From positions 672,001-736,000 of the forward strand of contig OZ242358.1 of the NCBI GenBank assembly GCA_965208835.1: 64,000 nt of DNA. The letters are read 5' to 3'. Under the pieces are notes generated by a model, which was not told where the DNA came from, searched no databases, and saw nothing but the letters and a program-made list of their open reading frames with translations. This document shows, piece by piece, positions 1 to 64,000 of this stretch. Every line of letters starts with the position of its first letter. Position 1 is the stretch's first letter. A program made the translations under genes and the position numbers. The stretch is from Candidatus Latescibacterota bacterium. Lineage in GTDB: Bacteria > Latescibacterota > UBA2968 > GCA-2709665.

Positions 1-1180
1 CCAGCAGTTGTGGGTGTACTTCACGCAGTACTCGATGGTCCACGTGAGCCTGAATTTCTATACCATCGGGTTCGCGTACATGACCGGCCTGGACCTGCTG
101 CTGAGTATCTGGCTGTTTCATCTGTTCTACATTCTGGAGATCGCGGCGTTCGCCAGGATTGGACTGGGTGTTGCGGGATTCTCCGGGGGAGACGTGTCGT
201 GGCAGGGCGGCGGCGCGATGATGTGTTACGTGGGCCTGGCGCTGTGGACGGCCCGGGGGCACCTCGGGCGGGTGGTTCGCCGCGCGCTGGGTCGAGCGGA
301 CGGAGCAGAGGACGCCGGGGAGCTGATGAGGTACCGATGGGCGGTGTGGGGGCTGGTTCTGGGAATGGCTTTTGTCATCTGCTGGTTGCGGATGGCCGGT
401 ATGGGACTGCTCCTGTCCGCGGCGTTGACCGTGCTGCTGTTCCTCAGTTACCTGGGTCTCACGCGGATCGTGGCGCAGACAGGTCTGCTCTACGTCAACT
501 TGCCGCAGAGCGCCCAGGGGCTTATTCTGGGCACCGCGGGCGCGGCGTCCATTCCGGCGCCGGGGCTGACGGCCATGGCGTTTACCAATGTCTTCGCCAA
601 TGATCACATGGGGTTGTTCATGCCAGCCTTTGCGCAGATTGCAAAGCTGGCCGAACGGGTGGAGCGCCACCGAAGGCGGCTGGGGTGGGTGGTGGGGCTG
701 GGCCTGTTGACGAGCATCGCGACGTCCGTGGCTCTTACACTTTATTGGGGATATTCCGGCGGGGCGTACAATTTCGGCAGTATCGCGCTCTTCCGGAGAA
801 CGGTCCCGAGCGTGAACGGATACGTGAGCCACATGCGCAGCCCGGACCCCGTTCACGCGGCGTCGTTCATCCTCTTCGCGGCCGGCGCCGCGGGAATGGC
901 CCTGCTGGCGTTCCTGCGATACCGATTCAACTGGTGGCCGGTGCACCCGGCCGGGCTGGCGGTGGGCTACACCGGCATGACAAGGCACGCGGCCTTCAGC
1001 ATCTTCGCCGCATGGGTTTGCAAGTTTATCGTGATCAAGACGGGCGGCATGCTGCTTTACCGGAGGACCGTGCCGTTCTTTATCGGGACCATCGTCGGAT
1101 ACGCGTTGGCCGTTCCCCTGGGTTACGTGCTGGACGTGATCTTTTTCCCGGGTCAGGGGCACGGAGTTCACGCGTATTGA
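1..1180 (+). CDS. DUF6785/DUF6784-type polytopic membrane protein (putative transporter), 5'-truncated by window edge
   Basis: Frame is open from the window start. Many hydrophobic segments. Motifs NFYTIGFAY, GAYNF, LRYRFNWWPVHP and PFFIG..GY...D.IFFPGQGH are shared with the paralogues at 59911 and 62293. Confidence 0.75.
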   Translation, partial: QQLWVYFTQYSMVHVSLNFYTIGFAYMTGLDLLLSIWLFHLFYILEIAAFARIGLGVAGFSGGDVSWQGGGAMMCYVGLALWTARGHLGRVVRRALGRADGAEDAGELMRYRWAVWGLVLGMAFVICWLRMAGMGLLLSAALTVLLFLSYLGLTRIVAQTGLLYVNLPQSAQGLILGTAGAASIPAPGLTAMAFTNVFANDHMGLFMPAFAQIAKLAERVERHRRRLGWVVGLGLLTSIATSVALTLYWGYSGGAYNFGSIALFRRTVPSVNGYVSHMRSPDPVHAASFILFAAGAAGMALLAFLRYRFNWWPVHPAGLAVGYTGMTRHAAFSIFAAWVCKFIVIKTGGMLLYRRTVPFFIGTIVGYALAVPLGYVLDVIFFPGQGHGVHAY

Positions 1181-1216
1181 CTTAGAAGCTCCATATGTAA
1201 CGAAGGGAGTGATCCG

Positions 1217-4200
1217 ATGCGTATTCCACCGGTGTACACGGAACTGAAGGACCTGAATCTCGATACTGAACTGGTCCGGAACGGCCGGCCGAACGCAACG
1301 ATCGTGGTTCCGGAAGGCGGACGATATGCCGGGGCCGCGAATCGCGTTCAGGCAGCGATTCAGGCACGTACCGGGGTGCTTGTACCCGTTGACGATGACT
1401 TGTCCGCGGCCGGCGCCGTGCCCATCTCGCGGCATCTGATCGTGCTGGGCAACCGGTCCAGCAATCGAACGATAGAATCGCTATATAACCAATACTACAC
1501 GCTGCTGGACCTGCGCTATCCGGGCCCGGGCGGGTACGAGGTCCGGTCGCTCCACAATCCGTTCGGCAACGGGCACAATGTAATCTTCGTGGGCGCCAGC
1601 GACGCGGAGGGTGTGGAAGCGGCCGCCGACACGCTGGCGGGGAAGGTGTCGGAAGCGAAGGCCGGGGAAGACGGGTTTTCGCTGGGGCGCCTGATGGAGA
1701 TCGAGCTGGGGCGGGGGATCCGGGTCCCCGATGACATCCGGGAATTCGAGACATGGGAGGCGTCCGCCGGTTACGGTTCGGTGGGGTATTTCGGATGGAA
1801 CAGTATCAGCAAGCGAATGGCGATGTACTACATGACCGGAGACGCCTTCCACGCCCGGGAAGCCATCCGCCTGGCCTTCCCGGACGACCTGGCGATGGCG
1901 GAGATTACGGAAATCGACGGAGAGCGGATCGAGAACAAGGACGAGCCGCTGAGCGGACCCTACCACTATAACGCGCACATGATGATCCTGTACTGGGATC
2001 TGATAGAAGAAAGCCCGGTATTCACCGATGAAGAGCGATTGCGTGTGACGAACGCGTTCGCCGCACAGTTCGGCCACGCGCAGGACCAGGGCGCCAGGCG
2101 GCGCGTGGTGGAGAACGTGCGTAGCGGTACGAGTGGATTCGCAGATCCCCCGCACAGCGTGGGTTCGCGGCACGGGCAGTGGTCCGCGATTTCGTTATAC
2201 TGTCTGGGCCGTTACTTTAACAACCACTACCCGAGCGTGCTGTGGGAGCAATCCATGGAGGCGGCCAGGTGGCATTTCGCATCGCTGCATCACCACGCCC
2301 TGGTGGACGGGGAACACGACAATCTGTTCTGGTACAATACGGGAATGGCGCCTGTTCTGAGCTATATGCTGCTCACCGGCGACCGTAAACCCATTGAAAA
2401 CGGCGTAATGGCCAACCTGCTTCGCGGGCAGGAGATCCTCGCCTCGGGGCGCGAATCCGATTGGGCCCTGAATTCCGCGTCCATCGGATTTCTCAACAAG
2501 GCCGCCTATCTGACGGGTGACGGCCGCTACCGCGAGTACCTGCGCCGGACCGGGATGGACCTGAACATCTTCCGGCTGGGGCAGTCCTTCTGGCCGGAAG
2601 ACGATATCGAGCCCCGCCTGCCCACGGATCTTGTGAACCGGTGGTCCATCCATCCCATCCCCGAGCCGCTGTGGCAGGAGCGTCACAGCGGACTGCCGCT
2701 GGACGAGTCGTATCTGTTCGGCAGTTTTCGCAGCGAGGCGGATTCAACCGGCGATTTCATTCTGATGAAGGGGATGAACGGCGCGTCCCGAAACGCGTAT
2801 CACACCTTTGTCGTCCTGGAACTCCGGCTGGATGGAGAGACGTTGCTGGAAGGCTACCTGAACCAGGTGTTGACGCGTTCCGAAGGGATGGTGGAGCCGG
2901 TGGTGGCGATGGATTCCGCGCTGAAGTACCGGGACGTGGTCGGGGGAACCGCCGTGGTCGCGGCAGAGGTTCCGAGGGCGGCGTTCTGCAGCTGGCGCAG
3001 GACGCTTGCGCAGCGCGTCGGCCGGTACGCGCTGTTTGTCGACCGTCTGACGTTCCGGGCGGACAGCGAGGAACTGGAGGTGGAGTTCCTGTGGCAGGGG
3101 AAGGGCGCGTGGGAGGCACTGCCGGATGGCGGCGCCGCGCGTATCCGGGATAACGCCCGGATCTGCATGTCGGATCCGCTAGAGACGGACGTTGAGGACA
3201 GCCAGGCCAGCATGCTGTGGCGGGGGGCCGTGCAGAAGGGAAGTGGGGGATGCTGGTTTTCGCTGCTGGCGGGCGACGGGACGGTGTGCGCGCGGTTGGC
3301 TGAAAACGCGGCCGCATTGGCGCTCCCGGAGGCCGCCGTGGCCGCCGTGGGAGATTACGAGGGACTGAACGGCGATCTGGTGGTGCTGGCCGGAAGCCAT
3401 CTGCACGGCGTCAATCTGACAGGCGTGGCAATGGGCGCGTCGCTGTTCCGCGCGAGTGCGCCGGTTCAGGTCGACTGGGACTTTCACGTTGGCGCGCTGG
3501 AAGTGGTCGCGGCTGAAGAGACCGAGATTTGGCTGACCGTTTCCGATCCGGACGGGGTGCGCGTCGGCGGAAGCGTCCCGGAGTACGGGGGAGATGGAAC
3601 GGATCCGGGTTCGGCGACCATCCGAATCCCCGCGGGGAGGCATTCAATTACCGGCGCGGCGCCCGATGCGGCCGCGCTTGAAAGGGTGACGGCGCGGCTC
3701 TCGGGCCTTCTGGAGCAGGGCCGGGATGCCAGACGGCGATCCGCGGCCGCGTCATCGCCCGTCTTGCCGGAGGTGCCGTCTGCAACTTCGGTTTTCGCAT
3801 CGCGGGTGGGCGGCGCCATAGTAGACCTGGTCGCGGTCGACTCGGGCGGACAGACGCTGATCTGTGCGGCCGAAGACCGGAATATCCACGTGTTGTCGCA
3901 GGGGGGCGAGAAACTCCGGACCATGCCGACCGACGGTCCTATCCGTCTCCTCCACTGGTGGGAGGAGCACAACCTGCTTCTGGCGGGATGTGAGGACGAG
4001 AAGGTCATCGCGTTCGATCCGGATTCCGGCGACCGGAGATGGGTCTTCGTCTCGGAGGAAGACCCCGCCGTGTTCAGGGCCGCTAAACCCTACTGGTTCA
4101 AGACGGCGCCGGGACACGCGGGTGTTCATGGACTCCATTCGGGTGTTTTTCTGGATGGCAGAAGCCAGGCATTCGTGGGCAGCGCCTGCACGCTCGAGAT

Positions 4201-4939
4201 TCTGGATGAAAACGGGAACCTGGTGAAACGGCTTCCGGTATTCTGGGGGCCGGGTTCGCGGTTCGCCCTGATCGACGGACCCGAAGGCAGCATCGACCTG
4301 CTGATCGCGAGGCAGCCCACGGACTCCCACGCGATGGCCGTCGTGAACAACCGCGAACTGGATCCGAAGCAGCGCGCCTTCCACGACGTGCCGGACGGAC
4401 ATACGAGTATCGGCGGGTGGGCGTGCATGAGCCGGAAGCACATCTTTTACGGCGACCTGGACGGGGACGGCAGGAAAGAAGTCGTCAGCGAGATCAACGG
4501 GACGTGGAACCGGGTAACGGTCTGGTCTCGGGACGGGCGCGCCCTGCACAACGTTCACCTGGGGCCGGGGCAGCGCATTCCGGCGAACAACGTCCGGGAC
4601 TTCGACGTGATCGACCTGGATGGCGACGGAAGAAAGGAGCTTCTCGCGGCGCTTTCGGGCGGGCTGATCCTGGCCCTCGACCACCAATGCGAAAGGATCT
4701 GGTCGAAGCGATTGCCGTCCCCGCCGACGGTGATGGCGGCTCTGGGGGTGGAGGGCGGCGCCAGGGTGGCGGCCGGCTGCGAAGACGGGACACTGGTCGT
4801 CCTGGACGGCGACGGACGGGTTGTCCTTTCGGGGAGATTGACCGGGAGGCCGACCTGCATCGTGGCGGTGGACGGAACGGTTGTACTGGCGACGGACCGG
4901 GGGGAGATCAGCCGGTGGCGGGCGGATGACGGCCGATGA
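1217..4939 (+). CDS. Large lyase-like protein, paralogue 1 (alpha/beta N-domain + alpha/alpha toroid + heparinase II/III-like sandwich + FG-GAP/PQQ propeller)
   Basis: 1240 aa, GGGAG RBS. Family motifs LGN..N..LY...DL.YPG.GGYEVRSLHNPFGNG.N and WDLIEESPVFTDEERL. C-terminal DLDGDGRKE repeats. No signal peptide. Confidence 0.7.
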   Translation: MRIPPVYTELKDLNLDTELVRNGRPNATIVVPEGGRYAGAANRVQAAIQARTGVLVPVDDDLSAAGAVPISRHLIVLGNRSSNRTIESLYNQYYTLLDLRYPGPGGYEVRSLHNPFGNGHNVIFVGASDAEGVEAAADTLAGKVSEAKAGEDGFSLGRLMEIELGRGIRVPDDIREFETWEASAGYGSVGYFGWNSISKRMAMYYMTGDAFHAREAIRLAFPDDLAMAEITEIDGERIENKDEPLSGPYHYNAHMMILYWDLIEESPVFTDEERLRVTNAFAAQFGHAQDQGARRRVVENVRSGTSGFADPPHSVGSRHGQWSAISLYCLGRYFNNHYPSVLWEQSMEAARWHFASLHHHALVDGEHDNLFWYNTGMAPVLSYMLLTGDRKPIENGVMANLLRGQEILASGRESDWALNSASIGFLNKAAYLTGDGRYREYLRRTGMDLNIFRLGQSFWPEDDIEPRLPTDLVNRWSIHPIPEPLWQERHSGLPLDESYLFGSFRSEADSTGDFILMKGMNGASRNAYHTFVVLELRLDGETLLEGYLNQVLTRSEGMVEPVVAMDSALKYRDVVGGTAVVAAEVPRAAFCSWRRTLAQRVGRYALFVDRLTFRADSEELEVEFLWQGKGAWEALPDGGAARIRDNARICMSDPLETDVEDSQASMLWRGAVQKGSGGCWFSLLAGDGTVCARLAENAAALALPEAAVAAVGDYEGLNGDLVVLAGSHLHGVNLTGVAMGASLFRASAPVQVDWDFHVGALEVVAAEETEIWLTVSDPDGVRVGGSVPEYGGDGTDPGSATIRIPAGRHSITGAAPDAAALERVTARLSGLLEQGRDARRRSAAASSPVLPEVPSATSVFASRVGGAIVDLVAVDSGGQTLICAAEDRNIHVLSQGGEKLRTMPTDGPIRLLHWWEEHNLLLAGCEDEKVIAFDPDSGDRRWVFVSEEDPAVFRAAKPYWFKTAPGHAGVHGLHSGVFLDGRSQAFVGSACTLEILDENGNLVKRLPVFWGPGSRFALIDGPEGSIDLLIARQPTDSHAMAVVNNRELDPKQRAFHDVPDGHTSIGGWACMSRKHIFYGDLDGDGRKEVVSEINGTWNRVTVWSRDGRALHNVHLGPGQRIPANNVRDFDVIDLDGDGRKELLAALSGGLILALDHQCERIWSKRLPSPPTVMAALGVEGGARVAAGCEDGTLVVLDGDGRVVLSGRLTGRPTCIVAVDGTVVLATDRGEISRWRADDGR

Positions 4940-4963: not shown

Positions 4964-7900
4964 ATGAAATCGGACCAGGAGTCGGTCGGACTTAAAGTCG
5001 ACGAATTGAAGGACATGCACCTGGAGACGTTACTGGCGGCCGACGGCCGACCCGGAGTGAAGATCGTCATCGGGGACAGCCCCGCCCACCGGCGTCTGGC
5101 TGTGCGAATCGTCGAACGGATTGAGGCCACCACAGGCGCCCGTTTGCCGGTCGTCCGCGCCGACGATGCGTCAGCCGCCAGGGGACTGTTCGACACACAC
5201 GTGGTCGCACTGGGAAACATGGCGGACAACCCCTTCGTCCGCTGGCTGTATTACCAGTGGTGGGCGATCGAAGATCTCTGTTATCCAGGTGAGGGAGGGT
5301 ATACGCTGCGGACGCTGCACAACCTGCTGGGAAACGGAAGGAACGCGGTCCTGTTGGGAGCCAGCGACGAAGCCGGTCTGGACCGCGCGGCTTCGCGGTT
5401 TCTGGAGCGAGTCGGCACGGGCGCGAGGCCGCGTTTCGGATGGCTGATGGACGTCGAGCCCGGCACGGCCTTCGATTCGCTCCAGCAGCCGCCTGACGGC
5501 TGGCTGGACGAGCGACGCGAGGACTACATCCGGCAGGTCAGCCAGCCGCATGCGTCCAAGGCCGGGGCGGGGCACGGGATGGTTACCGAGGCGGGAAGGC
5601 AGGGGTTCGCGTATCATCGGACGGGATATGAGGTCCATGCCAGAGCATTACGCGAAGCGGTGGATGCGCACCTGAAGATGGGGGAGCACGGCGTGATGGC
5701 GCATTTCAACGTGTGGTGGCTGGCGGTGATCTGGGACCTGATCGAGGAGAGTCCGGTTTTCTCCGATGCGGACCGCCTGCGGATCACGCGCTATCTGCTG
5801 TGGCTGATGGACTCGAACGAAGGCGCATACAACAGGTTTTTCCGTGAGGGCGTTGGTCACAGGATGGTGAGACAGAACCACCAGACGCTGGTGGGCCTGT
5901 CGTCGTGGTTCGCGGGTCGATACTTCGCCACTCACTATGGCATGCCTGAGGCAGCGGAATGGCAGGCGGCGTCCGCGGACCTGTTCAAGGGACAGGCGGC
6001 ATCGTTCAAGCCCACAGAGGATGCGAATGCCTACCAGTGGACGACGCTGGATCATCTTCTGACCTATACGCTCGCAAGCGGGGACATGACGTACGTGGAC
6101 AACGGAAACTGCCTCCGGTCGCTGGACCAGGCGGTGTTGTACTGCAACAACCGCGGCGCGATGCCGCCGTTCGGCGACTCCGGTGGATGCCAGGTGCCGC
6201 CGCCTGCCAGTTTCCTGGCCAAGGCGGGGCACGTGCTGGGGGACGGACGCGCGGAGTTCCTCATTCGCTCACATTCGGACCGGGTGTCGCTCATCCATGG
6301 ATTCGAGAAATATTGCGGCGACGGACTGGCGCCCGAAGCGCCCTCGGATATGTCCGGCGTGCGGGTGCTGGAGGTCGCGAAGGGCTTCTACGAATTCGCC
6401 ACCGAGCCGAAAGCCCGTCCCTCCGAGGTAAAGCGTTTAAACCTGCCTCGTGACGAGGCCTTCGACACCCTGTGTTTTCGCGAGGGGTTCGACCGGGAGG
6501 ATCAGTACCTGATGATCCACGGGATATCATACGGTAACCACGGGCACGACGACGGAAACACCATCGTGGAGTTTTCGGCGAACGACCGGGTGTTCCTGGT
6601 GGATGCCTCGTACACGGAGGGGCCCACCCTGAAACATCACAACGGCGTGACGGCGGTCCGGAACGGAGAGCCCTGGGAGGTACCTGCACTGTGCGGGCTC
6701 GATGGATTGGCGGACCTGGACCGGACGGGCATGAGCCGGACCTCGATGGCTGGGGCGTGGGGAGCGCGATGTACAAGGAACGTGGTCTGGATCAAGGGGC
6801 GTTTCTTCGTGGTCATCGACGAGATCGAGGCCACGGAGGCCGGGACGTTCGCGCTGGAATGCAACTGGCGGTCGCTGGGAACGCCGACGCTGGATCGAGA
6901 TCGGCTGGAGACCGTGCAGCGCGACCCGGACAGCGGGCGGGAGGACCGGTTTGTCCTGGAAGGCGCCGGCGGAGACCGGGTGACGATGGAACGGGACTGG
7001 GAGGCCTTCGGGCACTGGTGGAAGGACTATCCGTATTCCGACGATTACGTCAATATTCTGCGTCAGTCCGTCAGCCGCGAGATGGCGGCGGGCGACCGGC
7101 ACACGTTCATCAATCTGTTCTACGCGACAAACGATGCGAAACCGCTGGACGTGCACATGCGGCGCGTCGGGGAGAACGCGGTCCTCGTGGAGGGATCGGA
7201 AGGGCGGATGTTGATCGGGACAGGCGGCGCGGACGGCACGTTTGCGGTTGGCCCGATTTCGGGAAGTGCGGACGTGTACGCGATCGGAGAGGGGTGGTTC
7301 GCCCTGCTCGGAGGCACGTTGTTGCGGGGAGACGCAACGCTTTTCGAGAGCGACGCGCGGGTGACGGTCGAGTTGGACCTGGCGTCCGGCGAAGGCGTGC
7401 CGACTGCGCTGTGGAGACTTCCTGAATGGCGTCCCGATGGTGGATCTGCTATCCGGAAGGAGTCGGCGCCGCCCCTGCGTGCTCTTTGGTCGCGTGACTT
7501 CGGGTCCGCGGTCCGATGCGCGGCGCGCAGGGGAGAGGGCGTGGTTGCGGGGACGCAGGACGGGCGCGTGGTGGCGCTGTCTCCCGATGGAGAAACCGAT
7601 TGGACGTTTCAGGCCGGGGACGCGGTGCTTTCGGTGTGTGCGGCGGGGCGGAACGGCGACGAGAGCGGTCCGGTGGCAGTCGGCACCAATGACCGATGTC
7701 TCTACTATCTGGATGGCGAAGGCGCCGTGCAGTGGTCGCACAGGTTCGAGATCTTTCGGGGAGGGTGGGCATGGTATACCCGCAATTCTTCCGTCGAGCT
7801 TGTCAAGGCCGCGGACCTTCGAGGCACGGGTCGGCCGGATATCCTGGCGGCGGTCACCGACCGGCAGCTCCATTGTTTCGACGCTGACGGCAACAAGCGC

Positions 7901-8560
7901 TGGAATTTCTTCATCTACGGGATCTTCGACCCGTTCTGCCTGGCCGACGTGGACGGCGACGGGCTGCCCGAGGTGATCGGCGGACCCGGGAGGATATCCT
8001 GCGGGGGTACCTGCTATGTGCTGGATGCGGACGGAAATGAGATCGCACAAAACGGGCTGGACGGATGGCCGTCGATGCTACCGGGGTGCGATGTGTATCT
8101 GTACGGGAGCGGCGACAATCTGATCGCGTGCGGAACGACCCGGTCGAAGGTACACGCGCTGAGACTCGACGGTCAGAAGCTGGCGCACCTTTGGACCCGG
8201 GACGTGGGCGAAGAGGTGCACGCGGTCGCCGCGGTGGATCTGGATGGCGACGGGAAGCCCGAGGTGGCGGCCGGTTCGGACTGTTACTACCTCTACCTGT
8301 TCGACGAAAACGGGACCGAGCGATGGCGGCGCAACCTGGAGGCCCCGGTGCGGCGGCTGTTTGCCTCCGACGTGAATCAGGATGGCGCGCCGGAGATCGT
8401 CGCCGGGTGTGAAGACGGGAGCGTCTGGATCCTGGACGGAGACGGACGGACCCTCGGCCTTCACCGTACCGAGGCAAAGATTCACGCCCTGACGCCGCAC
8501 GAGGACGGCCGCCTTCTGCTTGGATCTTCGGACGGGACGTTGTCGATGCTGGGTCTGTGA
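4964..8560 (+). CDS. Large lyase-like protein, paralogue 2
   Basis: ATG at 4964 after AGGAGG. Motifs WDLIEESPVFSDADRL, VRQNHQT, GNHGHDDGN.IVEF...D (heparinase II/III-type H-x-H-x-D), HHNGV, and FG-GAP repeats DVDGDGLPE/DLDGDGKPE. Confidence 0.75.
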   Translation: MKSDQESVGLKVDELKDMHLETLLAADGRPGVKIVIGDSPAHRRLAVRIVERIEATTGARLPVVRADDASAARGLFDTHVVALGNMADNPFVRWLYYQWWAIEDLCYPGEGGYTLRTLHNLLGNGRNAVLLGASDEAGLDRAASRFLERVGTGARPRFGWLMDVEPGTAFDSLQQPPDGWLDERREDYIRQVSQPHASKAGAGHGMVTEAGRQGFAYHRTGYEVHARALREAVDAHLKMGEHGVMAHFNVWWLAVIWDLIEESPVFSDADRLRITRYLLWLMDSNEGAYNRFFREGVGHRMVRQNHQTLVGLSSWFAGRYFATHYGMPEAAEWQAASADLFKGQAASFKPTEDANAYQWTTLDHLLTYTLASGDMTYVDNGNCLRSLDQAVLYCNNRGAMPPFGDSGGCQVPPPASFLAKAGHVLGDGRAEFLIRSHSDRVSLIHGFEKYCGDGLAPEAPSDMSGVRVLEVAKGFYEFATEPKARPSEVKRLNLPRDEAFDTLCFREGFDREDQYLMIHGISYGNHGHDDGNTIVEFSANDRVFLVDASYTEGPTLKHHNGVTAVRNGEPWEVPALCGLDGLADLDRTGMSRTSMAGAWGARCTRNVVWIKGRFFVVIDEIEATEAGTFALECNWRSLGTPTLDRDRLETVQRDPDSGREDRFVLEGAGGDRVTMERDWEAFGHWWKDYPYSDDYVNILRQSVSREMAAGDRHTFINLFYATNDAKPLDVHMRRVGENAVLVEGSEGRMLIGTGGADGTFAVGPISGSADVYAIGEGWFALLGGTLLRGDATLFESDARVTVELDLASGEGVPTALWRLPEWRPDGGSAIRKESAPPLRALWSRDFGSAVRCAARRGEGVVAGTQDGRVVALSPDGETDWTFQAGDAVLSVCAAGRNGDESGPVAVGTNDRCLYYLDGEGAVQWSHRFEIFRGGWAWYTRNSSVELVKAADLRGTGRPDILAAVTDRQLHCFDADGNKRWNFFIYGIFDPFCLADVDGDGLPEVIGGPGRISCGGTCYVLDADGNEIAQNGLDGWPSMLPGCDVYLYGSGDNLIACGTTRSKVHALRLDGQKLAHLWTRDVGEEVHAVAAVDLDGDGKPEVAAGSDCYYLYLFDENGTERWRRNLEAPVRRLFASDVNQDGAPEIVAGCEDGSVWILDGDGRTLGLHRTEAKIHALTPHEDGRLLLGSSDGTLSMLGL

Positions 8561-11752: not shown

Positions 11753-11839
11753 TGTTCTTTCACGGCAGCTGATCGCCGGATGGTGACACGTTTCCGGGAC
11801 TGGACACGGAAGATCGTGTCGAATTTGGGAGGCATCGGA

Positions 11840-13884: not shown

Positions 13885-13890
13885 GAACAA

Positions 13891-52400: not shown

Positions 52401-52760
52401 GATCGTCTATGGCGGGGACGGCACGTGTTGTGGGATGCGGACGCGGGCGGCGCCGTGCTGTCAGTGGCCTATGCTGAAGGGCGCATATTCGCGGGCGCCT
52501 CGAACGGTTACGTACAGTGTTTCGAAACAGGTGGCGATAGGCTGTGGCATGGTTTTCTGGCAGCGCCGGTGTTCGGCCTGTCGCCGGGAGAGGGAGGCGG
52601 TTGCCTGGTGGCGCTTGGAGATGGAAGGACGGTGGGCCTGGACGGCAGCGGCGAGATTGGCTGGTCGAGTGGTGGGAATGCGATAACCGCGGCGGCTGCG
52701 CGTCCGGAGGGCGGGATACTTGTAGGCAGGTTGGACGGAACGGTGGAGTGTTTCGCGTAG
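49468..52760 (+). pseudogene. Large lyase-like protein, paralogue 6, with a 1-bp frameshift near 52423-52425
   Basis: Similarity to paralogue 5 holds to ...HRQLIVYGGDG, then continues in ORF 52425..52760 (VLWDADAGGAV...DGTVECFA). Confidence 0.7.
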
Positions 52761-55700: not shown

Positions 55701-56115
55701 GCATTTCCTGGGCTGCGGCGCGAACCGCGGCCGTAACATGCACGTGTTCGAACTGGATGCGGGCGGGGAATGGGAAAGGCGCTGGGTGAAGCGGCTGGGC
55801 GGGCGGGTCACCGGCATCCGGTTCCTCGGGTCCGACCAAAACGTGATCACGGGTACGAGCCAGGGATTCCTGCTCTGTTACGACCTGGACGGGAACCGAA
55901 TCTGGCGCCGGCTTTTCGAAAAGGGCATCCGCCACCTGGCGCCGTTTGGAGACGAAACGCTTGTGATCGACGATCAGGGACAGCTCAGCGCGGTCACCGC
56001 ACCCGGAGACGTCCGGACGCTGAGCCGGTTGCCGGGACCATGCGCGATCGCGGAACCCTCCGGTACTGCAACCCTGATGGCATGCGGCAGCGAAGTGTGG
56101 CGAGTTGAACCGTAG
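52792..56115 (+). CDS. Large lyase-like protein, paralogue 7
   Basis: ATG at 52792 after GGAGGT. Motifs DLWYPGPGGFELRTLCDPFGTG.N, FSEEERLAIT, PRQNHEL, FDKLS.R.GW..DDDFLLIDG.GGGSHSYDD, and a propeller C-terminus. Confidence 0.75.
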   Translation: MQIERPRPLEPETPLRGPNGVLVAAPRSGHGRTAARRIHRALRDINAHAELLEDPPGDALTAADRPVIVVGNLADSRCVRELYFRFLCATDLWYPGPGGFELRTLCDPFGTGCNLIHAGYSDAAGAASVTDAFSSRLDDPIPHSAVLDVTRLPLSSREAAQVRAEPLLPAAWQIANTMQGDLKGYLYYLTGDPELGEEYRRAWEAVVESGYVKSEKIVQAHLYSLSRLQPWRLVEHMDLFSEEERLAITRFIYGWAESAEGWHHVGRCPRVVSMHVPRQNHELIPALALACAAAYFRTHFPELTGPEQWEEVARRAYAPYGPSWKPLCDGLCHGWWMSQPVMVEYGLNDPSHGYFEQGGARQAADAALAVVNNEGWLPSAGDSDLNRQFPGPSLRTAAAYFDDGRYRFVHDLAPPERRLVNLTSLPRAFDAGTAPKVPDDRVGVTVVPVDPLLYHAWERDPQGAPGVVTTPPSVPIERCFDKLSVRTGWELDDDFLLIDGLGGGSHSYDDAGGILDYARLGLSLIVQEDSFVHSAPEHMSAVTVVRDGESGEIPGFAILEANETDPDGKVYLRIRLKDYAGADWVREVHLLPASCVVFNDTVIANQAGDYAVEARFRSPARLDLDGCEARCERRSPSAGDVTFRIENPCAAVSAAVVEEPVHLRYKDPRDQELWKERYHTDDVVLSTFVARRAVRLEPGEGVRLTHVAQVCGPGESAVNLREWGDDISFIQGETSRRLDVLPVRPPAPRQFSVEGRPGGADANRAFDAGERIRAMRPLGDESLVVGSESGAVSFLDPDRRPVWSVDLDGPVYDIGAAEGEATVLAVGHGASGLTGLDIRGRWIWQTDIEREPCPWPWWELPTPAPVQVEGGMFKGEAFFAVGCGDIQIRGFDGAGQESWRQRYNEGVPGRIRMADVNGCGEPEIVVGGEVLSDTSKCRILDPRGDFQAHLDVEGWTSILTALAFDETGGRHFLGCGANRGRNMHVFELDAGGEWERRWVKRLGGRVTGIRFLGSDQNVITGTSQGFLLCYDLDGNRIWRRLFEKGIRHLAPFGDETLVIDDQGQLSAVTAPGDVRTLSRLPGPCAIAEPSGTATLMACGSEVWRVEP

Positions 56116-56607: not shown

Positions 56608-57492
56608 ATGGACGACTATGAGCGATATCATTTCGACGTGAACGGATTCATTGTTGTCGAGAATATCCTGACAGCCGACGAAGTGGCGGCTCTGAACGAG
56701 GCGATCGACAACAACCCGGACCAGGTCCACATCCGGAAGGACGAGCTGCGGTTGTCCGGCGCCGCCAAACAGCATGGGGGAAAGGCCGCGCCCCTGTTGA
56801 AGGGTTCCCACGGTCGGGGAGATATCTTGAATATCCTGAACTGGCCCAAACCCTGGTGCCAGCCCTTCCGTGACCTGTTGACCCAGCCGCGGACAATGCG
56901 CTACATGCTGGAACTGATCGGCGACGGATTCCGCTACGGAAACGCAAACGGAATCAGCATGACGGCGGGCGCGGAGGGGTTCCTGTTTCACGGTGGAGGT
57001 ACGCCGAGGGGTCCGTATTATTCCGAGTTCCAGGACGGACGGATGTGGAACGGGCTGATGACGGTCTGCTATCAGCTTGCGGATGTCAACCCGGGGGACG
57101 GCGGATTCGCCTGCATTCCGGGCAGCCACCGGGCGAACTATCCCTGCCCGAAAGGTGTTCGGCGGCTGGATGTCCACCCGGAGTGGTTCAGGCATCTCCC
57201 GATGAAGGCAGGCTCGGCGTTGATCTTCACCGAGGCGCTCACCCACGGTACGCTTCCCTGGACGGCGTCGCACGAACGGAGAACCCTGCTCTACAGGTAC
57301 GGCGCGGGAGATATGGTGTTCGGGTCAGGGCCGGCTATCCACCCGGACGGATACGAGTCGTTCAAGGATGAATTGACGCCGTTGCAGCGCGCGTTGATGG
57401 AACCCCCCTATGCCAGCAGGCGGCCCAGCCTCGTGCCGCTGATCGACGAAGAGGAAGCATGCCAGGCGCGTGCGTCCGGAGGTCACGCCTGA
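56608..57492 (+). CDS. PhyH family Fe(II)/2OG enzyme with HGG in place of HxD
   Basis: GGAGGAG RBS. YHFDVNGF, LFHGGG, L.DVNPGDGGF..IPGSH, FTEALTHGT.PW....ERR.LLYRY. Confidence 0.88.
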   Translation: MDDYERYHFDVNGFIVVENILTADEVAALNEAIDNNPDQVHIRKDELRLSGAAKQHGGKAAPLLKGSHGRGDILNILNWPKPWCQPFRDLLTQPRTMRYMLELIGDGFRYGNANGISMTAGAEGFLFHGGGTPRGPYYSEFQDGRMWNGLMTVCYQLADVNPGDGGFACIPGSHRANYPCPKGVRRLDVHPEWFRHLPMKAGSALIFTEALTHGTLPWTASHERRTLLYRYGAGDMVFGSGPAIHPDGYESFKDELTPLQRALMEPPYASRRPSLVPLIDEEEACQARASGGHA

Positions 57493-57523: not shown

Positions 57524-59878
57524 ATGCTGCTTGCGTCCGAAACAGCCCTCGTGTCCATGGATCTGGTCGTTTTAACAGTGACCCTCGCCGTACCCTGCCT
57601 GGGCGCAGTGTTCTACCTCTTGCCGGATGGCGACGACTCGGGCTCGGGTGGGCGCGGGTCTCCCTGGCAAAGTATCGATCGCGCGAATGCCGGCGCGAGG
57701 CCGGGTGACAGCGTTGTCTTTCTGCCGGGGGTCTACCAGGGCACGATCGCGCCGGAGTCCTCCGGAACACCGGATGCGCCCATCCGATTCCGGTCGGAGG
57801 CGAGGCACGCGGCGGTGCTTGCAGGTGGCGGAGAGAGTCGGTTGGCCGTGGACCTTCAGCGGAAGCGGGACATCAGCATTGAAGACTTTCGATTTGCGCC
57901 GGGCGATGGGCGGTGGATGCGTGCCGATGAATGCCGCCGCCTTTCCGTAACGGGTTGCTATATGGAGAAAGCCGGCGACGCAACCCCGTTCGTGCTGACC
58001 GGGTGCACGCACGTGCGCCTTCTCGACAACGTATTCCGGAAGGACCGCGTCGGCGGCAATATGTGCCAGGTCGTCGAGTGCACGTACGTGCTGATCGAGG
58101 GAAACGCGTTCGCGCGGGTCGGGCACTGCCCGCTGCAGATTTCAATGACGAATAATCTGGTGGTACGGTCGAATTGCTTTCACAACCCGTGGGGGCGCAA
58201 CTATGAATTCTGGGCGTCGGGAAGGGCCCTGGTGGAAGGGAATATCGTTACCGAGGCACTCGACAGCGCGCATTCGGCCGACAGCCGGGCGAAAAACCTG
58301 GTGATCGACGGTATCATCCGCTTCAACCGGGTCTACGGAAACCGGCATACGCCGCTCAACTCATCGAGTTACGTGCCAGTCAACTACCACGTGCGCGATC
58401 CGTTCCGCTTCGTCAATTCCAGGGTGTACCACAATACGATCGCGGACAATCTCGGGTACGGGTGGGAACTTACCGGGATCAACGTAAGCTCGAATGTGTT
58501 TGTAAACAATATCTTCTTCCGGAATGACAAGTACGGGGGCGGCGTCCAGATAGTGAGGGGCGCGGACATAGCAGGCGACAACCTGTTTCTGAACAACGTG
58601 TTCCGCGGCACGGAGGCCGGTCGGCGCGTGGTGCGGTACGGAGACCGGTTCCTGACGGTGGATGAAGCCAACCGGAACTCGGTGGTCCGGGGACACTGGC
58701 GGGAATTTGAGGATAATCTCGACGTGGACCCGGGCTTCACGGATCCGGCAAACCGCGATTTTCGCCTGCGACCGGACAGTCCGTGCATCGATGCGGGACG
58801 GGCGCTGACGCGGACGAGACGTGCCGGGCGGGGTCTAGAGGTCCCCGTCGACGACGGCAGATACTTCTACGACGGGTTCGACATCGAAGGTGAGAAGGGA
58901 GACCGGGTATCCATAGGGTCGGGAGACCGGATTGCCCGAATCGAGAAAGTCCAGCTCAACTATTACCAGCCCGACGTGCTCGTTCTGGACAGGGAGATGG
59001 AGTGGGAGGCCGGTGATCCGGTAAGCCTGCCCTGGTCGGGAGCGGCGCCGGATATCGGCGCCTGCCAGCGTGGACCGGGGAGTCCAGGGAGCATGATCGC
59101 GAAGGTCGAGCCGGTAAGGGCAAGACCCGGGGATGAAGTCAGGTTTCACGTCGAGCCGGCGGGAAAGGACATCGCTTCTGTCCGGTGGGACTTTGGCGAC
59201 GGCGTCACGATGGAGGCGGGCGACGCCGTTCACGTGTATTCGGAGCCCGGTCATTATCCGTCTCGTGTCAGGCTGGAGTACGCGGATGGCGATGCGGAGG
59301 TAGACGTGGCGTTTGTTAAAGTGGAACTGCCGGTTGATCGGGCCGCGCCGATGCTCGCGGTCGATTTCGAAGAAGAGACGACGCTGGATTGGGGCTACCT
59401 GTTCAAGATCTACCGGGGAAACCGGCTGACAGGACACGAATTTGTTACCGGTGGTTTCGGGGGAAGCAGGTGCGTTCGGCTTTTCGCAGAGACCGACGGA
59501 TCCGATCTGGGCTGCAGTCTCGCTCCCGGGGAATGGGATATCGACGCCTATCCGCTCATCCGGTTTGCCTATCGGATACCCGAGGGGGTTCCGGTGGGGC
59601 TGTGGCTCCAACCGTTTCCGGCGGAAGCCTACGGGGAAGGGGTTGTGATTGCGGGAGGTACGTCGTCGCGCGATTGCGGTCCATACCCGGACACGGACAC
59701 ATGCGCGTTACTGGATGACGGCCAATGGCACGTTGCGGAACTGGATGCGCGGACGATTCGCGAACGCATCGAGGAAGTCCGTCATTTGCGGCGCTTCCGG
59801 TTCTATACGCACGGGAACGCAAGAGAAGGACAGCACTTCTGGTTCGACGAGTTCGCGATTCTGCCAGCTGAAGGATGA
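57524..59878 (+). CDS. Right-handed beta-helix protein with PKD domain (putative exported lyase or hydrolase)
   Basis: Hydrophobic N-terminus, Y..PDGDD...G...SPW.SI..A.....PGD.V...PGVY, Asn-ladder repeats, DF.L...SPCIDAG, PKD motif VRWDFGDG. Start uncertain (57470/57524/57557). Confidence 0.75.
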   Translation: MLLASETALVSMDLVVLTVTLAVPCLGAVFYLLPDGDDSGSGGRGSPWQSIDRANAGARPGDSVVFLPGVYQGTIAPESSGTPDAPIRFRSEARHAAVLAGGGESRLAVDLQRKRDISIEDFRFAPGDGRWMRADECRRLSVTGCYMEKAGDATPFVLTGCTHVRLLDNVFRKDRVGGNMCQVVECTYVLIEGNAFARVGHCPLQISMTNNLVVRSNCFHNPWGRNYEFWASGRALVEGNIVTEALDSAHSADSRAKNLVIDGIIRFNRVYGNRHTPLNSSSYVPVNYHVRDPFRFVNSRVYHNTIADNLGYGWELTGINVSSNVFVNNIFFRNDKYGGGVQIVRGADIAGDNLFLNNVFRGTEAGRRVVRYGDRFLTVDEANRNSVVRGHWREFEDNLDVDPGFTDPANRDFRLRPDSPCIDAGRALTRTRRAGRGLEVPVDDGRYFYDGFDIEGEKGDRVSIGSGDRIARIEKVQLNYYQPDVLVLDREMEWEAGDPVSLPWSGAAPDIGACQRGPGSPGSMIAKVEPVRARPGDEVRFHVEPAGKDIASVRWDFGDGVTMEAGDAVHVYSEPGHYPSRVRLEYADGDAEVDVAFVKVELPVDRAAPMLAVDFEEETTLDWGYLFKIYRGNRLTGHEFVTGGFGGSRCVRLFAETDGSDLGCSLAPGEWDIDAYPLIRFAYRIPEGVPVGLWLQPFPAEAYGEGVVIAGGTSSRDCGPYPDTDTCALLDDGQWHVAELDARTIRERIEEVRHLRRFRFYTHGNAREGQHFWFDEFAILPAEG

Positions 59879-59910
59879 GGTCCTGCTGAGAGACACGGAA
59901 AAAGGCGGAT

Positions 59911-61896
59911 ATGGATCGATCCGGGGCGAAATCCCTTTCGGTTTCACGGTCAGCAAGAATGAGGGAAGGGATCACCCTCAGGTCGGTGGTTATCGGTGTG
60001 CTGGCCGTGGTCGCGATCAACCTCTGGGTGACCTACGCGGAGACAGTCGTACGCTCTTCCCGGCTAAACCTGAGTTTCTTTCAACTGACGCTGCTGAGCA
60101 TTTTCATCGCCCTTGTTGGCGGGGTGAACCCGCTGCTCCGGCGGGTCCGCCCCTGCGCCGTTCTGTCGCCTTCCGAGCTGTTGGCGGTGGCGGCGATCGG
60201 GATGGTGGGCTCGGTGGTGCCCACGTCCGGGGTCACCGGGTTCCTGGTGGGGGTGATCGGCAGCCCGATCTACTTCGCAACGCCGGAGAACGGGTGGGCG
60301 GAATACTACCACCCGCACCTGAAGGCGTGGATGGTCCCGTCCGACAGGGTTGCGCTGCGGGCGTTTTTCGAAGGCGGCGCGGTCGGGGTTGACGCCTGGA
60401 AAGCGTGGCTGGCGCCGTTTGCTTGGTGGGGCAGCCTGGTCGCGGCGCTCCTGGTGGGATCGGCCTGTGCGATGGTCATTCTGCGGAGGCAGTGGGCGGA
60501 ACACGAAAAGCTGGTCTATCCCCTGGCCGCGGTGCCGATCGAAATGGCGGAAGGCGCGTCGTCCCGAAGTACGCTTCCGGATTTCATGAGGGGTCGGCTC
60601 TTCTGGTTCGGGGCGGCATTGGCGTTCCTGCTTTTCGCCTGGCACGCGACCTCCTGGTTCTTCCACGGGATGCCCGGCATCCGGTTCTTTCCTCACGCGG
60701 GCTACTTCCGCTTCACGCGCTACTCTCCCGGCGTCTATATCCAGCCCCTGCAGTTCTACACCATCGGGTTCGCGTATTTCGCCAACCTGCAGGTGTTGTT
60801 CAGCATCTGGTTCTTTTTCCTGGTACACGTGGTGGAAGGCGGCATCTTCAACCGCCTGGGGTACCAGATCGAACGGTCCACCGATACCTTCAGCGCGGAT
60901 CCGCCCACCGAGGCGTGGCAGTGCTTCGGCGCGCTGGCCTGCCTGGTCGCCTGGCGGCTGTGGGTGGCCCGCACCCACCTGCGGGACGTCGTCCGCAAGG
61001 CGCTTCGGGCCGACCACCCGCTGGACGACGGCCGCGAGGTCCTGTCGTACCGGGCATCGGTCCTGGGCCTGCTGCTGAGCGCGATATATGCGCTGTTCTG
61101 GCTCCAGCGGTCCGGTATGGACGTGATCTCGGCGTCGATGTTCCTGTTTGCTCTCGGCATCATCTATATCGGACTGGCCCGGGTCGTGTCAGAGGCCGGT
61201 GTGGCGTACGCGCAGGGCACGGTGACGCCGCAGGCTTTCGTGATGGACCTGCGGGGTACCTACGGACTCTCCGGCGCCTGCCTCACGTCCATCGCGCTTT
61301 CCTACGCACTGATCGACTATATGCGGGGACTCTTTACACCCGGTCTGGCGCAGGCGGTGCGACTGGCGGACCGGATCCGCGGAAACCGGCGCCTCCTGCT
61401 GTTGTGCGTAACCGTGGGCGTGTTCGCGGGGCTCGTCTCATCGATCTGGTTTACGCTTCATCTGGGCCATACGCACGGCGCCTACAACTTCTCCCGGCTG
61501 TTCTTCAACGGGAATCCCAAGGCGGTCTTCTCCACCACCCTGGGACAGATGCGTACGCCGGGCGCGCCCGAGTTGAGCCGGGTGTTGTTCTTCGGGATCG
61601 GTGCGGGTCTGATGGCGGTGCTCACGTTCCTGCGGTACCGTTTTTCCTGGTGGCCGATCCACCCCATCGGACTGGCCGTGGCCGCCGCGGACAATGTGTA
61701 CAGCCTGGCGATGCCGGTATTCATGGCGTGGGCTGCAAAAGCAGTTGTCATGCGCGTTGGCGGGGTCGCCCTCTACCGCCGGTCCAAGCCGCTGTTCCTG
61801 GGTCTGCTGGTGGGATACACGGCGGGCGTCGTGCTCGCGTTTACGGTCGACGCCATCTGGTTTCCCGGGCAGGGGCACCAGGTGCACTGGTGGTAG
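59911..61896 (+). CDS. DUF6785/DUF6784-type polytopic membrane protein (putative transporter)
   Basis: 661 aa. GIT.RSV.IG, YFATPENGW, ILRRQW.EHEKLVYPL, FYTIGFAY, GAYNF, WWPIHPIG, FPGQGH. Confidence 0.78.
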   Translation: MDRSGAKSLSVSRSARMREGITLRSVVIGVLAVVAINLWVTYAETVVRSSRLNLSFFQLTLLSIFIALVGGVNPLLRRVRPCAVLSPSELLAVAAIGMVGSVVPTSGVTGFLVGVIGSPIYFATPENGWAEYYHPHLKAWMVPSDRVALRAFFEGGAVGVDAWKAWLAPFAWWGSLVAALLVGSACAMVILRRQWAEHEKLVYPLAAVPIEMAEGASSRSTLPDFMRGRLFWFGAALAFLLFAWHATSWFFHGMPGIRFFPHAGYFRFTRYSPGVYIQPLQFYTIGFAYFANLQVLFSIWFFFLVHVVEGGIFNRLGYQIERSTDTFSADPPTEAWQCFGALACLVAWRLWVARTHLRDVVRKALRADHPLDDGREVLSYRASVLGLLLSAIYALFWLQRSGMDVISASMFLFALGIIYIGLARVVSEAGVAYAQGTVTPQAFVMDLRGTYGLSGACLTSIALSYALIDYMRGLFTPGLAQAVRLADRIRGNRRLLLLCVTVGVFAGLVSSIWFTLHLGHTHGAYNFSRLFFNGNPKAVFSTTLGQMRTPGAPELSRVLFFGIGAGLMAVLTFLRYRFSWWPIHPIGLAVAAADNVYSLAMPVFMAWAAKAVVMRVGGVALYRRSKPLFLGLLVGYTAGVVLAFTVDAIWFPGQGHQVHWW

Positions 61897-62227: not shown

Positions 62228-62292
62228 ATTCAGGCTCATTGTGGCCAATTTGACTGTTGTCTTTTTTAATTTGAGGCTGATTGACGATATCC

Positions 62293-64000
62293 ATGGAATC
62301 ATCGCAGACACATACCGGGGAGCCACTGACAGAAGCCCCTCGGGATTTGCGAAGCGGAGTCACGCCGAGGTCCGTCGGGATCGGTCTGCTGATGGTGGTC
62401 TTCGTCAATTTCTGGATCCTCTACTCACTGTACCTGATCCGGGCTTCCTGGCTGCAGGTAACGCATTTCCCCATGGGGCTGTTCGTACCCTTCATGCTTC
62501 TGGCGCTGTTTGTCAATCCCGCGCTCAGGGCGCTCGGGCGCGGCAGGGGCCTGTCCCGGTCGGAGATTCTGGTGGTGGCCGCGATGGGGTTGACCGGTGC
62601 GATGGTACCGGGCTTCAGTCTGATGACCACGCTACTGGGAACCATCTCGGTCCCGTACTACCTGGCCACCCCGGAGAACCAGTGGAGCGCCTTCTTCCAT
62701 ATCCACATGCCGGACTGGATCGCACCGTCGAACCGCGGCGGCACCATGAGGATGCTGTTCGAAGGCCTCCCGTCGAAGGATGCTCCGATCCCCCTGGGCG
62801 CCTGGGCCGGGCCGCTGAGCTGGTGGATGGCCCTCGTGGGCGCTTTCGCCTTTGCTTCGATGTGCCTGATGGTAATTCTGCGCCGGCAGTGGGTGGAGTA
62901 CGAACGCCTGGTGTACCCGCTCGCGCAGGTGGCCGCGGACATGGCCGGCGATGTGCGGGACGGAGGCCTGTTTCCGGGATTCATGCGGACCCGTGCGTTC
63001 AAGTTCGGATTCGGGGCCGCCACCCTGGTGATGACCTGGAACATGATGTCGCATTTCGCGCCGGGGTTTCCCGAGATTCCGCTCGGCATCCCGTCGCGAT
63101 GGACCACGTTCTTCAAGGGATTTCCACCGCTCCACACGACCATCAATTTCTACACGATCGGATTCGCGTATCTGGCCAACCTGGACGTGCTCTTCAGCAT
63201 CTGGTTCTTCCACTTCATGGCGATGTGGGAGGTCTTCGCGTTCGGGCGCCTTGGGGTGGGCGGAATCTCGGGCGGGGCGGCCGTGTCGTGGCAGAGTATC
63301 GGCGCGCTGTGTACGCTGGTGGTGTGGGGGCTGTGGACCGCCCGGAAGCACCTGCGCCAGGTCCTCAGAGGGGCGCTCCGTCCGTCCGGCGACGATGCTG
63401 AGGAGATCCTGTCCTACCGGACGGCCGTGTCCGGCGCGGCGCTGAGCCTGATCTTCATCGTTGCGTGGTTTTATAATTCGGGCATGGGTCTGCTTCTTTC
63501 AACGGTGCTGGTTCTGTTGTTTTTCATTACCTACCTGGGCATCGCGCGGGTGGTGGCGCAGTCCGGCCTGCTGTACGTCAGCTCGCCCATGTTCCCGCAG
63601 ACCGCCATCCTGCGCACCGTCGGCCCGGCCGCGATTCCCGGCCGCGCGATGACCGCGCTGGCCTTTACCTTCGCCCTGCGAAACGACGGCCGGGGGCTCT
63701 TCATGCCCGCTCTGGCGCACGTGGCGAAGATCGGCGACCTGATCGGCGGAAACCGGCGGAGGCTGGGCCTTGCCATCGCGCTGGGCCTGGTCGGGGCCGT
63801 GGCGACGTCGGTCGGCCTGACGCTCTACTGGGGATATACGATCGGCGCGTACAATTTCGGGAGCATTGCCCTGCTCCGGCGGACGGTGCCCACCTTCAAC
63901 TCATTCGTGAGCATGATGTCCAGCCCGGACCCGGTGAAGCCTGAAGTTTTCGGGTATTTCGGGGCCGGCGGCATCGCGATGCTCGCGCTCACGTTTCTGC
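62293..64000 (+). CDS. DUF6785/DUF6784-type polytopic membrane protein, 3'-truncated by window edge (absent from the ORF track)
   Basis: Translated by hand from ATG 62293: MESSQTH...GVTPRSVGIG...YLATPENQW...ILRRQWVEYERLVYPL...NFYTIGFAY...YWGYTIGAYNFGSIAL. No stop seen before the edge. Confidence 0.8.
   Translation, partial: MESSQTHTGEPLTEAPRDLRSGVTPRSVGIGLLMVVFVNFWILYSLYLIRASWLQVTHFPMGLFVPFMLLALFVNPALRALGRGRGLSRSEILVVAAMGLTGAMVPGFSLMTTLLGTISVPYYLATPENQWSAFFHIHMPDWIAPSNRGGTMRMLFEGLPSKDAPIPLGAWAGPLSWWMALVGAFAFASMCLMVILRRQWVEYERLVYPLAQVAADMAGDVRDGGLFPGFMRTRAFKFGFGAATLVMTWNMMSHFAPGFPEIPLGIPSRWTTFFKGFPPLHTTINFYTIGFAYLANLDVLFSIWFFHFMAMWEVFAFGRLGVGGISGGAAVSWQSIGALCTLVVWGLWTARKHLRQVLRGALRPSGDDAEEILSYRTAVSGAALSLIFIVAWFYNSGMGLLLSTVLVLLFFITYLGIARVVAQSGLLYVSSPMFPQTAILRTVGPAAIPGRAMTALAFTFALRNDGRGLFMPALAHVAKIGDLIGGNRRRLGLAIALGLVGAVATSVGLTLYWGYTIGAYNFGSIALLRRTVPTFNSFVSMMSSPDPVKPEVFGYFGAGGIAMLALTFL

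Follow-up and report, generated by a model that had tools for sequence, protein, structure and literature searches.

Sphingomonas A1 and Agrobacterium import alginate and possess cytoplasmic PL15 lyases. In Streptobacillus moniliformis, glycosaminoglycans are imported by an ATP-binding cassette (ABC) system that is encoded with a lyase gene cluster (PMC5430744; papers are cited here for the accessible parts of their text). The Latescibacterota have been reported as polysaccharide degraders, also in sponges (PMC8163846, PMC4454575), and lyases and conventional importers were annotated in Latescibacteria earlier (PMC4454575), while glycan import in the phylum has so far been assigned by annotation alone. 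Here we describe an island of roughly 120 kb (about 630-752 kb in genome positions) in a 5.18-Mb single-contig Latescibacterota genome; its middle, genome positions 672001-736000, is the 64,000 nt stretch that was analysed, called the window below, and coordinates refer to the window unless stated otherwise. Genomes about 90% identical to this one are labelled Candidatus Latescibacterota, or in a few cases Gemmatimonadota. The island encodes five membrane proteins of the DUF6785/6784 type, nine very large propeller proteins that we call giants, at least six other lyase-like proteins and UxuA, with a TonB receptor cassette at its head. We propose that it likely catabolises uronate polysaccharides by means of exported lyases, a predicted cytoplasmic lyase family and more than one importer, among them DUF6785 proteins, predicted to be OPT-fold secondary importers with paralogue-specific cargo, and give this reading a probability of roughly 0.55.

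In layout the island appears to resemble the Streptobacillus ABC cluster and the cytoplasmic alginate lyase systems more than a SusC/SusD locus. Like the former it seems to combine lyases, a binding-protein ABC importer and sugar-acid enzymes in the absence of SusCD; unlike them, as far as the accessible accounts go, it has many unclassified giants as well as OPT-fold transporters and a cassette of TonB/PorV-like type, and GH88 does not exceed the cut-off. With the SusC/SusD loci of Bacteroidota it shares the clustering of exported and internal glycan enzymes and a TonB-dependent receptor, here at the island head; it differs from them in that SusD is missing, the receptor being partnered by a secreted protein and a PorV-like barrel, and in that its enzymes look mostly cytoplasmic rather than periplasmic. 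The gene order of the island is retained in genomes G122 and G065 and is conserved within one Latescibacterota genus.

A dicodon model called 3760 genes genome-wide, Pfam and NCBIfam profiles were run over the 35 open reading frames (ORFs) of the window, and a hydropathy heuristic, in place of SignalP, served to recognise signal peptides. The genome totals are 22 DUF6785, 13 giant, 43 heparinase II/III (HepII/III), 75 PhyH and 98 Gfo/Idh/MocA (Gfo) matches. The window holds seven giants against 0.16 expected per 64 kb, a count reached by 0.2% of sliding windows; three DUF6785 genes against 0.27 (3% of windows); four PhyH genes against 0.91 (5%, from 74 of the 75 matches after one same-frame duplicate was dropped); three Gfo genes against 1.21 (14%); and one PF07940 gene against 0.53. 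Thus only the giants are strongly concentrated here, and hence define the island, while PhyH and Gfo lie near the genome background; DUF6785 and the giants are both genome-wide expansions in Latescibacterota. An earlier sequence-only reading of the window had counted three DUF6785/6784-type membrane genes, seven giants without signal peptides, three Gfo and four PhyH enzymes, and the profile scan and the hydropathy heuristic agree with each count, DUF6784 lying within the window in two of the three membrane genes. The spacings it gave also hold: 36 nt (1180 to 1217) separate the first membrane gene from giant 1, and 32 nt (59878 to 59911) separate a beta-helix gene from the second.

The seven giants of the window are paralogues of 1072-1283 aa, all on the forward strand and none with a hydrophobic N-terminus: giant 1 (1217..4939, 1240 aa), giant 2 (4964..8560, 1198 aa), giant 3 (18102..21953, 1283 aa), giant 4 (40335..43649, 1104 aa), giant 5 (46085..49390, 1101 aa), giant 6 (49468..52760) and giant 7 (52792..56115, 1107 aa). 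Their Pfam matches are to propeller families alone. None of the seven matches the Pfam and NCBIfam lyase models PF07940, PF16332 and NF045571, three isolated giant cores gave no match to curated lyase profiles, and PF07940 misses giants throughout the genome; a single giant in G053 exceeds its cut-off (26.2 bits), and the atlas clusters in which giants fall carry PF07940 at 0.92-0.93. The predicted model of giant 5 (predicted local distance difference test score, pLDDT, 92; 68 sequences) has an alpha/beta domain (residues 1-145) without a Pfam match, a helical toroid (150-420), a beta-sandwich (435-730) and an eight-bladed propeller (746-1101); the propeller-dominated VIA-align match (Z about 36) does not address the core. 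The core itself matches 3a0o (PL15), 4mmi (HepC), 5jmd and 8khv (GAGase) with E values of 4e-16 to 3e-14, and also heparinase III and dermatan sulfate epimerase 1 (6hzn, E 4.5e-14), all below 1e-13. A sequence profile of 12 giant cores finds 4mmh (E 3e-4), 3a0o (E 8e-4) and, in the same range, the alginate lyase 3nfv, with whose N-H the N-H of the giants is aligned. The toroid and beta-sandwich are thus those of the heparinase II/III-like lyases (PL12, PL15, PL17, PL21 and GAGases; 4mmi, 3a0o, 4ojz, 2fut, 8khv), from which the giants differ in a structural identity of just 9-14%, in the added N-terminal alpha/beta domain and C-terminal propeller, in mostly lacking a signal peptide and in comprising two subtypes with altered motifs.

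The motifs N-H, Y-x-W and H-x-x-x-D-x-N are retained in seven of the 13 giants of the genome, including giant 2 (with H-x-H-x-D-x-N, as in the heparinase II/III-like lyases) and giant 3; giants 4 to 7 have His in place of Tyr (N-H / H / H), and two of giant 1 type have lost the Asn, Tyr and His motifs (R-H / L / R). Assignment of these motifs to the His and Tyr named in the titles of lyase-mutant PDB entries follows motif order and one alignment rather than superposition, and counts over 181 giants are skewed towards giant 5 homologues and do not give family frequencies. We consider it very unlikely that the giants, or the His-for-Tyr and giant 1 subtypes, are instead epimerases or binding proteins, or else eliminases whose substrates are glycosides pre-oxidised by the neighbouring Gfo or PhyH enzymes. 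Such a view could draw on the presence of an epimerase within the same fold, on the six of 13 giants without the Tyr motif, on the absence of GH88 above cut-off from the genome and on matches of the window Gfo proteins to glycoside 3-dehydrogenase models, an oxidation-elimination route for glycosides being known; those matches are weak and far below cut-off, the Gfo proteins match inositol dehydrogenase better, outside the island neither Gfo nor PhyH is overrepresented around lyase-like genes, and the complete motif set in seven giants, with its N-H aligned to that of 3nfv, speaks against it. We regard the giants as a predicted new family of mostly cytoplasmic polysaccharide lyases with a propeller, in keeping with what the sequence-only reading had made of them from the letters; the lyase-type core appears in both model and profile, and they could found a new lyase family.

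Twelve of the 13 giants and 33 of the 43 HepII/III genes lack a hydrophobic N-terminus by the hydropathy heuristic, so that import of their substrates to the cytoplasm is needed. Giants with signal peptides do exist, namely a giant 1 paralogue of this genome (L020:8389-12510, reverse strand) and a giant of family f10 (L132:7553-11470, reverse strand), and a cytoplasmic location cannot hold for every member of the family. Giant 6 carries a frameshift near 52422, its propeller end lying in another frame (52425-52760); the frameshift is the same in contigs from three runs of one sample, for which reason we reject an assembly error, and the frame is intact in a relative from another sample.

Three genes of the window were earlier taken for exported lyase-like enzymes. 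All three have hydrophobic N-termini and two are, by sequence, clear homologues of lyases: a DUF4962 plus heparinase II/III protein (14902..17307, forward) homologous to PL15 oligoalginate lyase (3a0o, E 2.6e-84), and a heparinase II (HepB, PL21)-like protein with a signal-like N-terminus (29683..32487, forward; 2fut, E 2.8e-104; NF045571, E 1.3e-129 but below cut-off). Lyase activity is least certain for the third, a beta-helix plus PKD protein (57524..59878, forward) with a weak N-terminal match to the pectate lyase PelN. As to substrate, UxuA follows a giant in the island, and in family f10 a giant has in its vicinity an altronate dehydratase and a gene of the mannitol-dehydrogenase family, which together point to uronates in general. 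Lyase-like genes number about 60 in the genome; most of them lack a signal peptide, and they are accompanied by no SusD, few recognised importers and no GH88 above cut-off.

The first DUF6785/6784 gene of the window, DUF_a (2..1180, forward), is the 3' part of a gene for a 655-aa protein that starts 787 nt before the window; DUF_b (59911..61896, forward) encodes 661 aa; and DUF_c (62293..64000, forward) ends 263 nt past the window. A function in transport had been proposed for these proteins, and their predicted fold bears this out as far as it goes. The predicted model of DUF_b (pLDDT 92, from 113 sequences) matches a single fold in the PDB by Foldseek, that of barley YS1 (7wst; E 7.1e-9, TMq 0.64, TMt 0.69, 682 columns), along the whole chain, the next-best fold scoring E 0.03 and TMq 0.09. 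Aligned by hhalign with 12 true OPTs of the phylum, a profile of the 22 DUF6785 paralogues gives E 4e-4 across 421 columns, where a reversed control gives 0.25; E falls to 8e-6 once one OPT-like protein joins the profile and is 0.005 with the 113-row alignment, the reversed controls lying at 0.17-0.36 and the probabilities at only 7-83%. Further likenesses to OPT/YSL proteins (7wst/7wsr) are a long loop between membrane helices 1 and 2, comparable to the TM1-H1 hairpin of YS1, and the segment LRRQW..EHE.L.YP, which aligns with PLRR...EH..L.YPEG of OPTs. Against these stand an identity of 13-15%, the failure of all 22 paralogues to reach the PF03169 cut-off (best E 1.6e-4), and the absence from the alignment, made without residue-level superposition, of a conserved Asp triad, the conserved charged residues including E89, E126, E199, R354, R381 and K610. 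None of 23 aligned DUF6785 proteins matches PF03169 at E 0.1 and a sequence search of the PDB found no match; the assignment is based on Foldseek and hhalign; one DUF6785 member, in G091, does exceed the PF03169 cut-off (36.6 bits), and in the atlas neighbour cluster of DUF6785 11% of members carry PF03169. YS1 is a proton-coupled elevator transporter whose TM1-H1 loop is part of the pocket and whose proton-coupling residues are Asp446, Asp490 and Asp494 (PMC9691689). The loop that topology would place as the DUF6785 equivalent of TM1-H1 varies among paralogues, which suggests differing cargoes. We predict from the models that DUF6785 proteins are OPT/YSL-fold secondary transporters lying outside the Pfam definition of OPT.

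This family is large and widespread, with 7365 clusters at 50% identity, members in 140 of the 151 genomes sampled across the phylum and 16-27 matches per genome in five fully scored genomes. That some DUF6785 paralogues import glycans is plausible, though we hold it tentatively: in the accessible parts of the OPT literature that we found, glycan transport is shown for none of the characterised OPTs, and an OPT with such a cargo would extend the known range of the family beyond peptides and iron chelates. Characterised OPTs move those two classes of compound, and genomic context indicated peptides for most prokaryotic OPT subclusters (PMC3061005). It is accordingly conceivable, if quite unlikely, that the island DUF6785 proteins carry peptides, amino-sugar or metal-chelate compounds or serve an FtsX-type module, their adjacency to lyases being inherited gene order and the ABC importer alone importing the products. 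Other DUF6785 genes adjoin gamma-glutamyltranspeptidase, M14 and M81 peptidases, aminotransferases and amidohydrolases, and DUF_a directly follows an FtsX-type giant, closing a module of DUF6785, FtsX-type giant and DUF6785 upstream of the window; among eight long or atypical DUF6785 homologues checked for fusions, one (P0296) is fused to FtsX/MacB and none to an enzyme. Many DUF6785 genes, by contrast, stand in same-strand runs with GHL10, HepII/III, xylose-isomerase-like barrels, enolase-family dehydratases and Gfo, and xylo-oligosaccharide uptake was predicted from context for OPT subcluster 4C (PMC3061005). The FtsX module itself (L003:12483-19178, just upstream of the window) consists of a DUF6785 gene, a gene for a 1570-aa FtsX-type giant and DUF_a, and there are four FtsX-type giants in the genome.

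Whether DUF6785 is tied to lyases depends on the scale considered: locally it is, generally it is not. When the island is counted, six of 16 DUF6785 clusters have one of the 60 lyase-like genes no more than four genes away (null 1.8, P 0.005); leaving the island out gives three of 13 (null 1.4, P 0.17), and in two further genomes one of 23 clusters lies within 6 kb of such a gene (G007, null 0.6; G053, null 0.4, after one fragment was dropped). The enrichment beside lyases across genomes that the sequence-only reading had looked to is therefore missing at the family level. The copy numbers of the two families are also uncoupled. G049 has 23 DUF6785 genes, no giant and one HepII/III gene, and G003 has 21, none and none; giants are present in 65 of the 151 genomes; in family f10 they occur in seven of 11 genomes and DUF6785 in none of the 11, and in genus g6 the reverse is seen (no giant in 21 genomes, DUF6785 in all 21). 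DUF_b orthologues (60-68% identity) are found in 20 of 21 genomes of g6 and both of g2, two genera without giants, and at ten hand-picked orthologue loci outside the genus, covering 12 of 61 matches, a TonB/PorV cassette is adjacent at five, a HepII/III gene at one and a giant at none, the remaining neighbours being GHL10, Gfo, peptidases or aminotransferases. DUF_a and DUF_c are sister paralogues (tree support 100/100), and matches to them with E below 1e-150 are confined to genus g1 (14 of 14) and G065. The order DUF_a, giant 1, giant 2 is retained in 12 full-length genus loci (L067-L078) and also in L081 and L098, and in G065 the beta-helix gene, DUF_c and a giant stand side by side, uninterrupted by an ABC operon; only a remnant is left of DUF_a in G065 and of DUF_c in G150, the giants persisting in both.

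In our judgement it is unlikely that DUF6785 proteins are dedicated importers of lyase-cut acidic glycans in a single system that also comprises the giants, PhyH and Gfo and does without SusC/D and ABC transport. The gathering of five DUF6785 genes and nine giants in one island, the conserved order around DUF_a, the G065 adjacency, the clustering near lyases when the island is included and the scarcity of recognised importers (five SBP_bac_1, 14 MFS, four SSF and two DctM against 60 lyase-like genes) would all fit such a system. It is opposed by the want of enrichment outside the island, the uncoupled copy numbers, the DUF_b orthologues in giant-free genera, the decay of DUF_a or DUF_c where giants are kept, and the ABC importer and TonB cassette within the island. 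What remains of the proposal is its inventory, the transporter fold and the lyase cores; the enrichment, the coupling and the absence of ABC and TonB genes fell away. The island has recruited DUF6785, PhyH and Gfo from families expanded throughout the lineage, and they do not form one dedicated system.

The statement that no SusC/D, ABC permease, TRAP or MFS gene occurs is true of the 35 ORFs of the window, and it is a window-edge effect where ABC and SusC are concerned, since both ABC and TonB genes lie in the island beyond its edges. A sugar ABC importer (SBP_bac_1, two BPD_transp_1 and MalK) starts 19 nt after DUF_c; among just five SBP_bac_1 matches in the genome, its binding protein (genome position 736283) scores best. 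Orthologues of this protein, which accompany giants in a second family too, occur in 13 of 14 genomes of g1, 13 of 28 of g18 and the single genome of g27; in g18 they are present in all 11 giant-bearing genomes and lie within 7 kb of a giant core in six of the six with both positions listed on one contig, and G144 has one without a neighbouring giant. At the island head, about 35-42 kb upstream of the window, stands a cassette of a small barrel, a TonB-dependent receptor (plug domain at genome position 631050), an 811-aa secreted protein and a PorV-like barrel. There are five copies in the genome (genome positions 629833-637371, 3582844-3590414, 3749539-3756974, 4183890-4192077 and 4575259-4582481), in which the secreted protein is unannotated and of about 750-810 aa; we regard it as a candidate SusD substitute. 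SusD (PF07980, the sole SusD profile used) was found in none of five genus genomes, the Bacteroides control being positive, so this part of the SusCD-free description is upheld. Four of the five cassettes lie within 13 kb of a DUF6785 gene, as does 8% of the genome (P about 2e-4), and three of these are three to five genes upstream of it in an unbroken same-strand run (1.7% background); the fifth is that of the island head, 15 genes upstream of the first island DUF6785. A general enrichment of DUF6785 near TonB receptors was considered and rejected as not significant (P 0.11).

These parts suggest a scheme in which every activity, location and cargo is predicted from observed genes, gene order, counts, model folds, motif classes and linkage statistics. 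The PL15-like and heparinase II-like enzymes, with their signal-like N-termini, would cut the polymer outside the cell or in the periplasm; the TonB receptor cassette would carry the fragments across the outer membrane without SusD; passage of the oligomers through the inner membrane would fall to the ABC importer and probably also to some of the island's five DUF6785 proteins; and in the cytoplasm the signal-less giants would complete the breakdown by beta-elimination, after which UxuA and further sugar-acid enzymes would lead the products into central metabolism. The island in this way supplies candidates for missing steps, namely the OPT-fold family, the TonB/PorV-like cassette, the ABC binding protein and the unclassified lyase family. 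A wider proposal, which we put forward with some reserve, is that DUF6785/6784 is a large, undescribed OPT branch and the main inner-membrane oligosaccharide importer of Latescibacterota behind a SusD-free TonB/PorV-like cassette, DUF_a and DUF_c importing uronate oligomers for new cytoplasmic propeller-fused lyases of at least three active-site types.

Several observations weigh against our reading of the island as a uronate catabolic locus with several importers. Six of the 13 giants are without the Tyr motif, four having His and two being also without the Asn and His motifs. No GH88 exceeds the cut-off in the genome and none of its 17 sulfatases lies in the island, so that sulfated glycosaminoglycans are not an obvious substrate. 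The ABC linkage in g18 represents one lineage and not many independent events, and G065, of genus g3, retains the island without the ABC operon. The test of cassettes against DUF6785 was picked after the pattern had been seen in other genomes, and when all 20 TonB plug genes are taken, four of 16 clusters lie within 15 kb (null 1.9, P 0.11). Lastly, the sisters DUF_a and DUF_c both abut giants, and these two may thus be bound to the giants more closely than we have allowed for the family. The parts of the island are real and undescribed; a dedicated DUF6785-lyase-oxygenase system is unsupported at the family level. In the main texts of the literature searched, which was mostly open, we found no paper naming DUF6785, DUF6784, PF20581 or PF20580, none on TonB-dependent and PorV proteins in Latescibacter and none on PhyH expansion in sponge symbionts; the accessible part of PMC12993501 has nothing on DUF6785/6784 or the giants.

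The PhyH-family iron- and 2-oxoglutarate-dependent (Fe/2OG) dioxygenases of the window (10982..11752, 21964..22827, 38832..39611 and 56608..57492, all forward) and its Gfo/Idh/MocA oxidoreductases (8649..9641, 12832..13884 and 28615..29637, all forward) had been counted as members of the system. Outside the island, five of 52 PhyH clusters lie within four genes of a lyase-like gene (null 5.8) and 11 of 67 Gfo clusters do so (null 7.5, P 0.12); given this and their near-background density we reject either family as a dedicated partner, and the claim of membership fails, both being genome-wide expansions. A role in removing substituents is at most conceivable. An unannotated gene (11780-12811, forward) with a weak match to the PcRGLX N-terminal RIFT barrel (E 0.003) lies between a PhyH and a Gfo gene genus-wide. 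The gene at 27091-28143 (forward) shares its first 34 residues, at 62% identity, with the start of the Gfo protein at 28615, and then becomes barrel-like (OMP_b-brl, E 0.004); the sequence suggests that a Gfo start was duplicated and then received an insertion.

Other genes of the window include that for a BNR-repeat propeller protein of the sialidase-like fold family (9710..10882, forward) and that for a DUF4838 protein with a GH67N/GH20b-like N-terminal domain and without a signal peptide (23768..25588, reverse). A DUF4838 protein of 73% identity is encoded also near the single giant of G110; here the gene is followed by that for an M55 D-aminopeptidase (22875-23708, reverse), and a multihaem cytochrome c gene (25590-26834, reverse) ends 1 nt before it. 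Between giants 4 and 5 lies a gene (43857-45833, reverse) that joins a periplasmic binding protein (Peripla_BP_6, E 2e-58) and a Cu/Zn superoxide dismutase domain (E 2e-36) in one chain. A run of four genes (33732-37353, reverse) for a porin-like unannotated protein, an FMN-binding protein, a cytochrome b561-like protein and an ApbE flavin transferase is probably an extracytoplasmic flavinylation and electron-transfer module. A BrnT/BrnA type II toxin-antitoxin pair (14105-14613, forward) lies within the island, and a lone ribosomal protein S4 gene (rpsD; 37574-38182, reverse) stands apart from ribosomal operons. The gene at 32522-33547 (reverse) encodes a sterol methyltransferase with a Sterol_MT_C domain (E 1.7e-24), a gene type that is usually eukaryotic and that has been linked to sponge symbionts.

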